DNA of 64,000 nucleotides from Candidatus Multivoradales bacterium (GTDB lineage Bacteria > Acidobacteriota > Thermoanaerobaculia > Multivoradales > JAHEKO01): assembly GCA_965248055.1 (NCBI GenBank), contig CBDFIJ010000004.1:2784001-2848000 (forward strand). The letters are read 5' to 3'. Position 1 is the stretch's first letter. Every line of letters begins with the position of its first letter. Positions 3,179 through 56,768 of this stretch are shown here, piece by piece. The position numbers and the translations under genes were made by a program. The notes under the pieces were generated by a model that ran no database searches, was not told the origin of the DNA, and worked only from the letters and a program-made list of their open reading frames with translations.

Positions 3179-4021
3179 TCATGAGTTACCACTGCCCTCT
3201 CTGGACGGTGGTGGTGAGGGTGATTTGCCAAGGAAGGCCAGCTCTCGTGGACGAATCCCACATGAAAGGCCCAGTTCGAGGTGGTCGTAGTTGTGTAGAT
3301 CGACAACCTCAACTTGTCGAAAAGAAAGGCGCATGAGATCGACAAAGTCGATGCCGTAGTCTCGATAATGGCCGTTGAATGATAGGTCAGGAAAGATCAC
3401 GGTTTGCTTGCGAGACCATTCTCCAGGGACTGTTATGACAGCTATACCCCGGGGTCTTAGCACGCGGGCCAGTTCTGCTAAGGCTCTTCCATCATCCGGG
3501 ACATGCTCAAGAACATGGTTAGTGAGAACCATGTCGAACGATTGATCGGCAAATGTTAGGTTCTGGATATCTTCACCGGGAAAACCAACATCCTTCAAGA
3601 ATCGGTCGGTTGTTGCGTATTCCACACCGGGTCCGGTCAGTGCCGGTACCAAGATCGGCTCAGGGGCAAAGTGCAGTACTCGGCAGGGGCCTTTTCTTGC
3701 AATAAGGTCGGGCAAGAGGTAGCTGAGGCCTCTGTGGCGCCCCCGAGAACGACATTGTGGGCAGATAGATTGCCATGCGATTCTCAGACGGTTGCTACTG
3801 TGGACAAAAGAGTGACCCGCATAGCCACAGCAAGGACAGTGGTAGCGGGGTGTCTCGTTGTGCAATTGATTGATTAGATTGGCACTGCCGGAGAGTAGAG
3901 CGTTCCATGCACCTCGTGAGTCATGTAAGCGGAGGTGCCCAAGAATCCGAGAACCCACACGCCGCAAGGTCTCCTTTGGCCACGGGAGGTTCGATCCCGG
4001 ATTGTCAATGCGGAGAACCAT
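3179..4021 (-). CDS. Class I SAM-dependent methyltransferase with N-terminal Cys (Zn-ribbon-like) motif
   Basis: Motifs CPCC...CPQC, VLHFAPE, DIQNLTFADQSFD and NHVLEHVPDD..ALAELARVLRPRG. Confidence 0.85.
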   Translation of the reverse strand: MVLRIDNPGSNLPWPKETLRRVGSRILGHLRLHDSRGAWNALLSGSANLINQLHNETPRYHCPCCGYAGHSFVHSSNRLRIAWQSICPQCRSRGRHRGLSYLLPDLIARKGPCRVLHFAPEPILVPALTGPGVEYATTDRFLKDVGFPGEDIQNLTFADQSFDMVLTNHVLEHVPDDGRALAELARVLRPRGIAVITVPGEWSRKQTVIFPDLSFNGHYRDYGIDFVDLMRLSFRQVEVVDLHNYDHLELGLSCGIRPRELAFLGKSPSPPPSREGSGNS

Positions 4022-4135
4022 AAAAACATCATATGTGATTCAACTCACTACTGCTCCAAAGTAGGACAGGGCCATGCCCTGCGCGCGCCTTCTGTGCAGA
4101 GAGCGGGCTGAGCCTAGCCAATAGCCTCCCGCCTC

Positions 4136-5219
4136 TGCATAAGTTCAGAAACAAATGGCACTCGTTCAATGAGGGATGTCGATGAGCATGAGGTTGATCA
4201 GAGGGCGTTTCCAAGGCCTGGGACATCTTCGTCATCTAGGGGTATCTTGGGTCATGACCCAAGATAGCGCTGAGAAACGTATCCGAGCATTGAGATTCTG
4301 GCAGGAGCATGGGATCGATGCAGCGATCGATGCATTTTCGGTGAGCCGGAGGACTCTGTACCGCTGGAAGTCTCGTCTTGGTAGGTGCAAAGGAGAGCTA
4401 AGCTCTCTAAACCCTCAATCAACAGCTCCGAAGAAAAGAAGACGGCGCAAGTGGCCCTCTGAGGTAGTAGCCGAGATCGGTCGATTGCGGGTCAAAGAGC
4501 CCAATCTTGGCAAGGACAAGATCTATCCGCTGTTGAAACCCTGGTGTGAAGTAAGGGGAATTACCTGCCCCTCGGTGAGCACCATCGGCCGCATCATTGG
4601 CGATGCTCCCGACAAGATGCGCTTGGTGCCTCAAAGGATTGATCGCCTGGGTCGAGTGAAAGCAAAACGAAAGCGTAAGCCTCGCAAACCTAAAGGAACC
4701 AAGGCATGCTCGCCTGGCCAGTGGGTGGCAGTAGATACCATCGAGCGATTCTGTGATGGCCAACGCCGGTACTTGATCACTCTGACCGATGCCGCCAGCA
4801 GCATGAGTCTGGCAATAGCCACCAACTCCCACACCTCGAGCACGGCAGCGCGCTTTCTGGACCTGAGCCTTGATGTCTTGCCATTTGCTGTTACTACCGT
4901 GCTCTCAGACAACGGTAGTGAGTTTCAAGGAGCCTTCGACAAGAAAGCTGCTGAGGCTGGAATCAAACGCTGGTACACCTACCCCAGGTGCCCGAAGATG
5001 AACGCCCAAGCCGAGAGATTCAATCGAACCATCCAAGAGAAATTCGTTGACTACAACGAAGACTTGCTCTTCACTGACCTCCAAGCTTTCAACCAAAAAC
5101 TCTTCGACTGGATGCTCTGGTTTAACGCCGAAAGGCCCCACTGGAGCCACCGACAAAGACCACCGCTACAATACGTAGCTGAACATACCGATCAGTGCCA
5201 AATGTCATGGACGCATACA
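4136..5219 (+). mobile_element. IS481-like insertion sequence (1084 bp) with 5-bp target duplication GCCTC
   Basis: IRL 4136-4162 (TGCATAAGTTCAGAAACAAATGGCACT) matches the reverse complement of IRR 5194-5219 (TGTATGCGTCCATGACATTTGGCACT) at 18/27. GCCTC flanks both ends (4131-4135 and 5220-5224). Confidence 0.85.
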
Positions 5220-5228
5220 GCCTCTTGA
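4176..5228 (+). CDS. IS481-like DDE transposase (HTH plus integrase core)
   Basis: HTH (VSRRTLYRWK) and DDE residues (VAVDT, VLSDNGSEF, NAQAERFNRT). The start may be ATG 4182. The stop codon lies outside the element. Confidence 0.92.
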   Translation: MSMSMRLIRGRFQGLGHLRHLGVSWVMTQDSAEKRIRALRFWQEHGIDAAIDAFSVSRRTLYRWKSRLGRCKGELSSLNPQSTAPKKRRRRKWPSEVVAEIGRLRVKEPNLGKDKIYPLLKPWCEVRGITCPSVSTIGRIIGDAPDKMRLVPQRIDRLGRVKAKRKRKPRKPKGTKACSPGQWVAVDTIERFCDGQRRYLITLTDAASSMSLAIATNSHTSSTAARFLDLSLDVLPFAVTTVLSDNGSEFQGAFDKKAAEAGIKRWYTYPRCPKMNAQAERFNRTIQEKFVDYNEDLLFTDLQAFNQKLFDWMLWFNAERPHWSHRQRPPLQYVAEHTDQCQMSWTHTAS

Positions 5229-5253
5229 CTTGATCCTTTAGGGTTCGTAGAAT
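5225..5253 (+). promoter_or_regulatory. Sigma70-type promoter of groES-groEL
   Basis: TTGACT (5225-5230), a 17-bp spacer and TAGAAT (5248-5253), directly before CIRCE. Confidence 0.85.
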
Positions 5254-5279
5254 TAGCACTCGTCAAGAGAGAGTGCTAG
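5253..5279 (+). promoter_or_regulatory. CIRCE element (HrcA operator)
   Basis: TTAGCACTC-N9-GAGTGCTAG is one mismatch from the consensus TTAGCACTC-N9-GAGTGCTAA and lies upstream of groES. Confidence 0.95.
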
Positions 5280-5351: not shown

Positions 5352-5642
5352 GTGAAAATTCGTCCGCTTCATGACCGCGTAGTGGTCAAGCGCCTTGAGT
5401 ATGATGAAGAAGAAGTTCGAGGTGGCATTATTATCCCCGACACTGCCAAAGAGAAGCCTCAGCAGGCAGAAGTGGTAGCCGTCGGCCCCGGAAAGCTGAA
5501 GGAAGATGACAGCCGCTCGACCATGGATGTCAAGGTCGGTGACCGCGTCTTAGTCGGCAAGTACTCCGGTAGCGAGATCAAGTTTGACGGCGACGAACTC
5601 GTCATCATGCGCGAGGACGAGATCCTTGCGGTACTCAACTAA
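5352..5642 (+). CDS. groES: Co-chaperonin GroES
   Basis: [28 protein letters not shown], and an AAGGAG RBS upstream. Confidence 0.98.
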
Positions 5643-5677: not shown

Positions 5678-7336
<1,659 letters not shown>

Positions 7337-53959: not shown

Positions 53960-54072
53960 TCCGCCGAACCAACCCATCTCCAGCGTCATCTCCCGGCTCG
54001 GCGTTTTTGACACGCTCGCATACATCAGCTGACCTAGATCAAACACCTGTGAGACAGCGCCGTTAGTCGCCG

Positions 54073-54170
54073 AGGCTGTGGGGGATGTGGGAATCTCGTG
54101 AGAGATTTCCAAGGGCTGTGGGAAGGCAAGCGTAGCTGGCTTTGCACCAGCCCATCATCATCCACAGCCT
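54073..54170. repeat. Nested inverted repeats (three-way-junction-like) in the IS left end
   Basis: Outer stem AGGCTGTGG/CCACAGCCT, inner hairpin GGGAATCTC-GTGA-GAGATTTCC and inner stem GGGCTG/CAGCCC. Confidence 0.75.
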
Positions 54171-54239
54171 TGACAAGTAAAAAGGGGGCCAAGATCCTTC
54201 GGGTCTATCGAATAACCCAAAACGAAGGGAGGCCCCCAG

Positions 54240-54459
54240 ATGCAAATCGTCGCACTCGATCCAAGTTTCTACAAGTACTACCGTGAAGACATCGTTGTCT
54301 TAGGCTCTCAGGCTCGTGATCGGCTGCGCTTGGTTGCGAGCTTCGAGCAACTACGCGACAAGGGGATCTCGGGTGAAGAAGCAGCTCAGATCTTGGGCAA
54401 GAGTCGAGCTACCCTTTACCGCTGGCGCAAACGCCTTGAACGTGGCCCCCGACATCTAG
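54240..54459 (+). pseudogene. IS481-like transposase, 5' fragment (HTH)
   Basis: AAQILGKSRATLYRWRKRL. It joins the 3' fragment in frame once the inner IS is removed. Confidence 0.9.
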
Positions 54460-55775
54460 GAGCTTGCTGAAAAACCCCACCACCGGACCATAACGATTCT
54501 ATAATTGGGAATAGGAGGTTTTGATGCGTGGATCGGATCAAGGTCAGGGATCAATGTTCAGCTACGTTGACCTGGAACGGCGAATTCCTCGGTCTCATCC
54601 GTTGCGGCGGATCCGAAGTTTGATGGACGAAGCTCTTGGAGAGCTATCGGAGCGTTTTGAGACGATCTACGCTTCGAGTGGTCGCCCTTCGATTCCCCCC
54701 GAGCGTCTGCTCCGCGCATTGCTGCTTCAAGTGCTCTTCAGCGTGCGTAGTGAACGCCAGCTGATGGAGCAACTTGAGTACAACCTTCTATTTCGCTGGT
54801 TTGTCGGTCTTGGTATCGACGAGCGGGTGTGGGACGCGACGACGTTTTGCAAGAACCGAGAGCGCTTGCTCGAAGGTTCGATCGCGGAAGAACTGTTTGC
54901 AGCGGTGCTGTCTCAAGCCGAGGACCGTGATCTGCTGTCACCGGATCACTTCAGCGTTGATGGCACACTGATCGAGGCTTGGGCTTCGCACAAGAGCTTT
55001 CGGCCAAAGGACGAAGAGGTTAAACCTCTGGACGGTGGAGCGGACTTCCGAGGCCAGAAGCGGTTGAACCAAACGCACGCTTCGACGACCGACCCCGAGT
55101 CTCGGCTGTCGCGAAAAGGCCGTGGTAAGGAAGCAAAACTAAGCTACCGGGGCAACATTCTGGTCGAGAACCGGCACGGGATGATTGTCAACACCGAGGT
55201 CAACATCGTCACCGGCAACGGTGAGACAACAGCGGCTCTGGCCATGCTGGAGCAGCGGGCTAGCAATCATCGCGTCACGGTGGGTGCTGACAAGGGCTAT
55301 GACAACCGAGCGTTTGTAGAGAATGCGAGGAAGCTGAATGCGACACCTCACGTAGCGCAAAGCACCAAGAATCGCCGCAGCCGGATTGACCGACGCACCA
55401 CTCGCCACGCAGGTTACGAGATCAGCTTGGCGAGACGACCGAGAGTCGAGGCACCCTTCGGCTGGCTCAAACAGTACGGACTGCAACGCAGACCGATGTT
55501 TCGAGGCGTAGCCCGCATCGGTTGGTCTTTCACTTTTGCGGCAACAGCGTTTAACTTGCTCCGAATAGCCAATCTGAGCGCGCCAACATGACGAATTTCT
55601 ATCCCAAGTGCTCCTCAAATCGCTCGAATCACCCGTTAGGGCGAATCGAAGAGCTGACCCAAGGGGTCACCAACACCCTCAACTCGCCAGCCACCTTGAT
55701 TCGTCTCCACATTCAAAGTACTTCGACCGTTATGACCACTGAAATTAGCTCCGTTGCCCTTTTTTCAGCAGGCTG
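54460..55775 (+). mobile_element. IS5-family insertion sequence (1316 bp) with CTAG target duplication
   Basis: IRL GAGCTTGCTGAAAAA and IRR TTTTTCAGCAGGCTG match at 13/15. CTAG lies at 54456-54459 and 55776-55779. Confidence 0.92.
54524..55591 (+). CDS. IS5-family DDE transposase
   Basis: HPLR, GRPSIPPE.LLRA, RSERQL, FSVDGTLI, TTDP, GADKGYD and R..VE..FGW.K, with an AGGAGG RBS. Confidence 0.93.
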   Translation: MRGSDQGQGSMFSYVDLERRIPRSHPLRRIRSLMDEALGELSERFETIYASSGRPSIPPERLLRALLLQVLFSVRSERQLMEQLEYNLLFRWFVGLGIDERVWDATTFCKNRERLLEGSIAEELFAAVLSQAEDRDLLSPDHFSVDGTLIEAWASHKSFRPKDEEVKPLDGGADFRGQKRLNQTHASTTDPESRLSRKGRGKEAKLSYRGNILVENRHGMIVNTEVNIVTGNGETTAALAMLEQRASNHRVTVGADKGYDNRAFVENARKLNATPHVAQSTKNRRSRIDRRTTRHAGYEISLARRPRVEAPFGWLKQYGLQRRPMFRGVARIGWSFTFAATAFNLLRIANLSAPT

Positions 55776-55779
55776 CTAG

Positions 55780-56597
55780 AACCGATATCAAGCCGACCCA
55801 AGCGGGTGCGTAAGGCTGACTGGTCACCTGAATTGGTACAGAGAGTCGAAAGTCTCCGTCGAGACTTTCCTGCCTGGGGCAAGGAAACCCTAGCGCCGCT
55901 GATCCAGGGCGAGGGCTTTGAGGTATCAGAAGCCACTGTCGGGCGTATCTTGCGCAAATTGATGGATCGAGGGGTAATCCACCGGGTACGCTACCGGCGC
56001 CAGAAGTACAAAAACTCCCGGCGTATGCGCCGGCTCCACGCTCAGCGACTGCCGAAATGGTGTCCCCGACCAACGCGCCCTGGCGAGCGACTGCAGATCG
56101 ACACGCTGCATCTGGTCCCTGCTCCAGGCAAGTGGCTCAAACACTTTTCAGCCTCCTGTCCGGTCAGCCGGTGGACAGTGGGAGAGATCTATCAACGTGC
56201 CACTTCTCGCTGTGCAGCACGCTTTCTAGACAAAGTCATTGCCGAGTGTCCGTTTGACATCACCTCGATCCAAGTGGACGGTGGTAGTGAATTTATGGAT
56301 GAATTTGAGAAAGCCTGCCGAGATAGAGGCATCACCCTCTATGTGCTGCCGCCAAAGAGTCCGAAGCTCAACGGCACCGTCGAACGAATGCAGGAAACCT
56401 GGAGAGGAGAGTTTTATGAAATGTATGAGCTACCCGATACTGTCTCGGCTTTGAGACCTTACATCCAGAGATTCCAGGACCTCTACAACACCTACAGGCC
56501 GCACAAGAGCTTGAAAAGAAAACCCCCGGCAAGGTACCTTAGAAAGCTCGACCCAGGGGTCGTGCTCCCGCCGACTGTCTCAAAGGTACTGATCTAG
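55780..56597 (+). pseudogene. IS481-like transposase, 3' fragment (integrase core)
   Basis: WGKE.L, VSEATVGRIL, LQIDT, IQVDGGSEF, NGTVER and YN..RPH. Confidence 0.9.
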
Positions 56598-56606
56598 GAC
56601 ATCAGC

Positions 56607-56636
56607 TTGACAGCGGGCGCCGTGAGTCATTAGGTT
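56607..56636 (+). promoter_or_regulatory. Putative sigma70-type promoter of the riboswitch-metH leader
   Basis: TTGACA (56607-56612), an 18-bp spacer and TAGGTT (56631-56636), a few bases before the aptamer 5' end. Confidence 0.7.
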
Positions 56637-56640
56637 TAGC

Positions 56641-56760
56641 CTGCATCAAGAGCGTTCGGGTGACCGAACGCGGCAACCTGGGAAGGACACCCAAGGTGCC
56701 AACCCGCCAACCCGCGGTGGGGATGTGGTCGGCCACGGTAAGCCGGTAACGAAGGTCCCA
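56641..56760 (+). ncRNA. SAM riboswitch, SAM-I/IV-like
   Basis: Core motifs GCATCAAGAG, GGCAACC, GGTGCCAA and GATG. P2 is a simple hairpin (CGTTCGG-GTGA-CCGAACG). P4 and a short P5 are present, and L3 GGAC is complementary to the 3' GTCC. It lies upstream of metH. Confidence 0.88.
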
Positions 56761-56768
56761 AATCTTAC

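Follow-up and report, generated by a model that had tools for sequence, protein, structure and literature searches.

One textbook transposase whose stop codon is completed by the target is that of IS870, a member of the IS630 family in which the stop is created by insertion into CTAG. IS870 differs from the element described here, an IS481-like insertion sequence (IS) in the 64-kb stretch of DNA that we analysed (hereafter, the window), in that it belongs to another family and its stop lies inside the duplicated target. The transposase of ISRe46/TnRErm46 also has no stop codon within the element and is reported to take one from its target, the frame being closed by TAG where CTAG stands in the right direct repeat (PMC6794481). 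ISRe46 and IS481 proper belong to the same transposase family as the window element, and the core of their inverted repeats (CATGAC) is similar. They target, as given in the same text, the 6-bp palindrome NCTAGN and duplicate this target (PMC6794481), whereas the family studied here duplicates 5 bp of any sequence, and its stop lies outside the duplication, in an asymmetric promoter element that supplies it at about 57-70% of insertions.

ISKpn28, known from Klebsiella chromosomes and plasmids and matching 2706 plasmid records, is a different element from a different host, with a transposase 43-45% identical to that of the window element over 92-95% of its length. Like the window element, it has a right end (...TGGACCCATACA) through which the ORF stays open. 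In one flank, arranged as in the window, TGGACCCATACA is followed by TCTTC and then by TTGAAA-N17-TATCAT, which gives the tail SS; a second flank reads ACA GCAAG TTGGCT and gives the tail ASWLL. The accessible part of a study on ISKpn28 reports that it makes 5-bp direct repeats, and in its Table 3 TTG follows the repeat in 5/9 loci with direct repeats (PMC13733257). These TTG-flanked loci, as far as that part goes, include a copy newly acquired during construction of a derivative strain from its parent, and the new copy at site C lies inside nlpD, upstream of rpoS, where GGTGG is followed by TTGCTT (PMC13733257). [quoted passage not shown]

Homing to promoters is shared by the window family with TnGBS, ISLre2 and ISKra4, which insert at a distance of 15-17 bp as compared with 5 bp here. 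Their transposase is Mutator-like, whereas the window protein is rve/IS481-like, so that the window element works in a similar way but is no member of that group; the term 'stop codon' is absent from the main text of the paper on these elements. An ORF that enters the flank and acquires copy-specific tails was described for IS1239 of Streptococcus pyogenes, where the accessible text infers a relaxed C-terminal constraint (PMC13630536). Read-through in IS1239 is attributed there to a lineage-specific 1-bp deletion, unlike the family-wide design found here, and the abstract is silent on a target that gives a regular stop (PMC13630536). In the literature covered, from which ISfinder, TnPedia and the supplements of PMC13733257 and PMC3942029 were outside the scope, we found neither an IS481-like insertion 5 bp upstream of a -35 box nor a stop derived from the -35 hexamer itself (TGA of TTGA, outside the duplication). 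A target-completed stop is already published within the IS481 family, and the -35-derived, TTGA-dependent version would be a variant of it.

The insertion sequence at the groES promoter

The element, which we assign to an ISKpn28-like group of IS481-like insertion sequences, spans positions 4136-5219 on the + strand (1084 bp). Its ends were placed by a blastn search of the complete genome with this region, together with a listing of the flanks of the copies, and it is bordered by two copies of the target-site duplication GCCTC, read directly in the sequence at 4131-4135 and 5220-5224 (+ strand). The left terminus at 4136 reads TGCATAAG..., and the right terminus at 5219 reads ...GCATACA. The left inverted repeat, TGCATAAGTTCAGAAACAAATGGCACT (4136-4162, + strand), was identified by comparison with the right end in reverse complement, and the right one, AGTGCCAAATGTCATGGACGCATACA (5194-5219, + strand), doubles as coding sequence for the final 9 residues, W-T-H-T included; an inverted-repeat search around 4136-5219 missed both terminal repeats, which are too imperfect. 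Four runs of a single sample, from which the assembly itself may derive, have contigs that break at 4134-4136 and 5219-5220, and in the same runs, which are not independent of the assembly, depth over the element was about 7-10 times that of the flanks. No empty pre-insertion joint was found among the contigs of these four runs.

The transposase ORF (4176-5228, + strand) is predicted to encode a protein of 350 aa with HTH and rve/rve_3 domains, and crosses both the right inverted repeat and the duplication. Its start codon is uncertain, as the homologue P0001 begins two codons later. The junction at 5208-5230 reads TCA TGG ACG CAT ACA GCC TCT TGA CT, where ACA ends at 5219, the right copy of the duplication together with T5225 makes the codons GCC TCT (Ala, Ser), and the predicted stop is the TGA at 5226-5228, within the -35 hexamer; there is no stop codon inside the element. 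This is the reading put forward in the initial annotation, in which a transposase without an internal stop borrows TGA from the -35 box (ACA GCC TCT TGA), the 5-bp duplication and the first T forming two codons that bring TGA into frame, and both the ORF and the letters at 5220-5228 bear it out.

The -35 hexamer of the groES/groEL promoter, TTGACT (5225-5230, + strand), directly follows GCCTC and is separated by a 17-bp spacer from the -10 hexamer TAGAAT (5248-5253, + strand); TTGACT-17-TAGAAT (5225-5253) agrees with the sigma-70 consensus at 10/12 positions. An inverted repeat read in the sequence at 5253-5279 (+ strand), TTAGCACTC-N9-GAGTGCTAG, is putatively CIRCE-like. Downstream of the targeted promoter lie groES (5352-5642, + strand) and groEL (5693-7336, + strand), both identified by translation. 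On the other side of the element, a 280-aa ORF similar to SAM-dependent methyltransferases (3179-4021, - strand) diverges upstream, and the element is therefore intergenic between this ORF and groES.

Regarding family assignment, the 350-aa transposase matched the Pfam entries rve (5.8e-10), rve_3 (1.1e-11), HTH_23 and HTH_32. The top NCBIfam family was NF033577 (IS481), with 175.6 bits as compared with a curated cut-off of 224, and IS3 came second with 103.1; since the NF033577 score is under the curated cut-off, we use the label 'IS481-like'. The element has the single-ORF DDE transposase of IS481, with an rve core, an N-terminal HTH and no frameshift, as well as imperfect terminal repeats running from 5'-TG to CA-3' (TGCAT...ATACA) and a 5-bp duplication. 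It lacks the NCTAGN target of the canonical IS481 clade, and the conserved TTG sits outside the duplication. With the ISKpn28 group it has in common a related transposase, 5-bp repeats, a right end reading ...TGGACnCATACA and an ORF open to the end. As in the ISRe46 type of target-completed stop, the ORF is open to the IS end and is closed by the target, which gives the stop at 44/77 of the metagenome junctions described below; the stop is not placed inside the duplicated target, since TGA starts one base beyond the first post-duplication base.

Two insertion sequence families in the same genome

The genome contains about 9 full or near-full copies of the window element (family 1), with eight full-length matches, plus fragments. 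Perfect 5-bp duplications flank six of the copies, and the duplications of the family read GCCTC, GGGTC, GGAAT, CTTTC, ATCGC and TTTCC. At 10/13 family-1 right ends, five variable nucleotides are followed by TTG, and in 7/10 of these by TTGA, the ten hexamers being TTGATC, TTGGCA, TTGACA, TTGACG, TTGTTA, TTGCTG, TTGACG, TTGACA, TTGACA and TTGACT. Exactly 17 bp further on, TAnnnT or TATGAT is present at 9/10 of the TTG sites. The TTGA sites yield two-residue tails after W-T-H-T (AS, RG, NS, GI, IA and FP), and the others yield GSWH (TTGGCA), LSC (TTGTTA) and RAC (TTGCTG); AS, RG, GSWH, LSC and a 13-residue tail were verified by translation, and the remainder were read from the flank listing.

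In two of the three exceptions, the family-1 right end and 5 nt lead straight into the left end of an element of a second family (family 2), whose inverted repeat supplies the 13-residue transposase tail at the abutting site. We considered these two copies (3172900 and 3000377) as off-target insertions and rejected this, as both abut a family-2 left end; their arrangement fits a later insertion of family 2 into that very position. The remaining exception, L012 (G000:C4:2237008-2237387), is a 3' fragment of 380 bp, which may be fused to a large gene or lie inserted in one. The frame of this fragment stays open for 985 codons, and its flank, GTGTCGCGGC, is not promoter-like. In addition, IS256/Mutator-like transposase genes were observed in or adjoining two family-1 copies, L005 (2547-3827, 426 aa) and L007 (2678-3955, 425 aa), and one of these two genes interrupts the 5' part of copy C4:943232-945764.

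Family 2 is 1252 bp long and IS481-like, with a transposase 30-32% identical to that of family 1. Five nucleotides and TTG follow 10/12 of its right ends, with TTGA in 7/10 of these, and seven perfect duplications were found among the 11 copies with both ends. The family-2 ORF closes at its own TAG within the right repeat (...GATC TAG GACA). Family 2 thus reaches the same target with its own stop, and promoter targeting therefore needs no borrowed one. A search for tRNA genes in the 100-bp flanks of family-2 copies gave none, and longer flanks gave tRNA-Tyr and tRNA-Phe, placing family 2 at real promoters: one copy stands 5 bp ahead of a TTGACT hexamer that is followed after about 45 bp by tRNA-Tyr, and another lies just upstream of tRNA-Phe.

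The window holds one member of family 2 (element 2, 54030-56601, + strand), which is interrupted by an insert of about 1.3 kb and carries the duplication TCAGC on both flanks (54025-54029 and 56602-56606, + strand). Its right junction reads ACATCAGCTTGA at 56599-56610. As pointed out in the initial annotation, element 2 has the same register (ACA TCA GCT TGA) and an ORF that stops earlier, inside the right inverted repeat and in another frame, namely at the TAG of the repeat. The -35 box targeted by element 2 is TTGACA (56607-56612, + strand), followed by N17-TTAGGT, and a SAM-I/IV riboswitch (56638-56763, + strand; Rfam RF01725, 46 bits) begins a few bases after the -10. The insert splits element 2 at 54460-55775, and the C-terminal coding part at about 55300-55590 resembles another transposase. 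Directly upstream of the left TCAGC, the sequence ...CGCATACA (54017-54029) resembles the end of a family-1-type right end. Judged from these letters, two IS families seem to be piled up at the promoter of the SAM riboswitch.

Transposase tails and junctions beyond this genome

A large protein collection contained 2656 homologues at E<=1e-20, and tails were scored in 119 of the best 120 cluster representatives (44-98% identity), leaving out the 210-aa fragment P0008. These counts, those that follow and those given above for family 2 were read off alignments and protein listings by eye, so that small counting errors are possible, and protein clusters and metagenome loci may overlap and are not phylogenetically independent. 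A terminal W-[T/P/A/S]-x-T was reached without an internal stop in 117/119 proteins, the exceptions being one frameshifted and one cut short. The tail after this motif had exactly two residues in 64/119 proteins, none in 3/119, one in 1/119, and from 3 to more than 40 in 49/119. Among these 49 longer tails, the third residue was Cys or Trp in 25, which is the expectation for TTG[C/T/G] in frame. The longer tails include in-frame fusions, with a PilP-domain protein in P0012 and with a cold-shock-domain protein in P0093. In the Klebsiella proteins P0004, P0005 and P0009 (518-558 aa), the ISKpn28 transposase is read past W-T-H-T into a second, partial transposase, and tandem or nested copies together with the missing stop account for these three fusions.

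In metagenomes, a scan with a 19-sequence profile gave 80 loci (41-51% identity), of which L071, L080 and L086 were excluded, their contigs stopping short of the end of the element, so that 77 junctions remained. At offset 5 after ...ATACA we found TTGA in 44/77, TTG[C/G/T] in 21/77 and other sequences in 12/77, and, at the distance expected of a -10 box, the A of its 'TA' reached a conservation of at least 90%. In random flanks a stop at the third flank codon would be expected at about 3/64, as compared with the 44/77 found. At four junctions without TTG at offset 5 (L101, L116, L123 and L128), TATAAT or TAGAAT nevertheless stands at the usual distance, and in two of them TGG directly precedes TATAAT in the manner of an extended -10. 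This pattern of bases suggests that the whole promoter, and not the TTG word alone, is what the elements target.

A scan of genome contigs gave 5 loci. Gammaproteobacterial MAG copies (about 50% identity) showed the same pattern, with TTGACA, TTGATA, and TTATGC with a 12-residue tail. One locus, L047 (47% identity), has an internal TGA directly after the Trp, which indicates that a stop within the repeat is possible.

With respect to the initial annotation, its expectation that W-T-x-T followed by two variable residues recurs across homologues was borne out by the 64/119 proteins and by TTGA at offset 5 in 44/77 junctions. Its stronger form, that this geometry always ends in WTHT-x-x-stop, holds at TTGA sites and fails at TTGC/G/T, which make up 21/65 of the TTG sites.

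Possible origins of the missing stop codon

We consider it probable (about 0.7) that the missing stop is a tolerated by-product of the insertion site. Insertion is oriented, with the right end of the element toward the gene and the duplicated 5 bp immediately upstream of a sigma-70-type -35. The transposase ORF is dual-coded with the whole right inverted repeat, the terminal ACA being the last codon of the IS, and translation would run on into the flank until it meets a stop in frame: TTGAnn would give W-T-x-T-x-x, and a TTGC/G/T hexamer or an atypical site would give a longer, arbitrary tail. The terminal codons would be constrained as DNA, that is, as the site of transposase binding and cleavage, and not as protein; the usual target would give a stop two codons on, hence no selection for an internal one, and a short disordered C-terminal tail would be of little consequence.

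Several observations bear on this reading. About a third of the on-target sites leave the ORF unterminated. The invariant residues C341, W345 and T348 fall on AGTGC, TGG and ACA, which are conserved DNA blocks of the repeat, and because of this coincidence the conservation of the C-terminal residues is explicable at the DNA level. In an AlphaFold model (19-sequence alignment, mean pLDDT 81) the last helix ends at residue 337, and residues 345-350 have a pLDDT below 50, a low value that is in itself no proof of disorder. Finally, TTGA makes up 7/10 of the TTG sites in the stop-less and in the stop-bearing family alike (10 vs 10 sites, a small sample), so that no extra TGA bias is detectable. 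The overall TTGA share of the TTG-type metagenome junctions was 68% (44/65). In E. coli promoters, A occupies that hexamer position in about two thirds, which is close to this share.

The initial annotation had proposed instead that the borrowed stop could tie accurate targeting to correct termination of the transposase. Developed further, only copies at a proper TTGA promoter would make a native-length, fully active, cis-acting transposase, and off-target insertions would be self-limiting. This is unlikely. It accords with the stop-less design in 117/119 homologues and with a TGA of TTGA that is always in phase, and the 12/77 off-pattern junctions would indeed give extended proteins; moreover, a distinct CTAG-targeting clade of IS481 also borrows an in-frame stop, according to the accessible text of its description (PMC6794481). 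However, 21/65 TTG-type sites are on target and yet unterminated, giving extended tails, and the TTGA share is not in excess of that in the stop-bearing family of the same genome. The tail region is modelled as disordered and its conservation is explicable at the DNA level; near-identical, presumably recent copies in the genome include those with GSWH and LSC tails; and transposase from other copies could mobilise any copy. The initial annotation had itself named variable-length tails as an observation that would speak against coupling, and such tails occur in 49/119 proteins, fusions to downstream genes included. Of the other two observations that it had named, conserved internal stops were not seen (117/119 without one) and a TGA bias beyond that of the target is not detectable. 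On present evidence, coupling is the less likely and the tolerated by-product the likelier of the two.

A wider version of the same idea, in our view similarly doubtful, holds that the stop-less design is functional: the element would home to the whole promoter, the borrowed TGA would serve as a licence in cis at a strong-consensus -35, and such a design would have evolved twice in IS481, as TAG/CTAG and as TGA/TTGA. Recognition of the whole promoter would accord with three of the junctions without TTG (L101, L123 and L128), where TATAAT stands at the right distance. The persistence of the stop-less design across a large clade, together with the borrowed stop of the CTAG clade, could reflect selection rather than tolerance.

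It is still less probable that the position of the stop has a regulatory role, in which a stop in the -35 box would tune read-through transcription into the downstream gene or insulate the host promoter. The transposase is co-oriented with groES, and no terminator-like site was found on the + strand between 4329 and 5400, which together make read-through into the groES promoter plausible; however, at a like site the family-2 ORF closes 14 nt earlier, and the stop lies elsewhere at about 40% of the junctions. A local accident or decayed copy, in which a mutation removed the stop and TGA stands in TTGACT by chance (a probability of about 5% for a stop at that codon at a single locus), is refuted by the same end and geometry in the other copies in this genome, in 117/119 homologues and at 65/77 junctions from unrelated metagenomes.

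Returning to the tolerated by-product, which we prefer, the finding matters in the first place for annotation. In this lineage, transposase genes by the thousand carry no stop codon themselves, that of ISKpn28 on clinical plasmids of Klebsiella among them, and for this reason pipelines label them as pseudogenes or join them to the gene that follows; with the rule 'IS end + 5 nt + TTGA', the true ends of both the element and the protein can be placed. Every insertion also marks a -35 box and can thus serve in promoter mapping, uncultivated bacteria included. As regards the biology of these elements, oriented promoter homing, described earlier for TnGBS/ISLre2, has been reached by a second, unrelated DDE family, and a target-completed stop recurs in the IS481 family with a different target. 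Both together make it open to experiment whether a C-terminal read-out of the target has a function at all.
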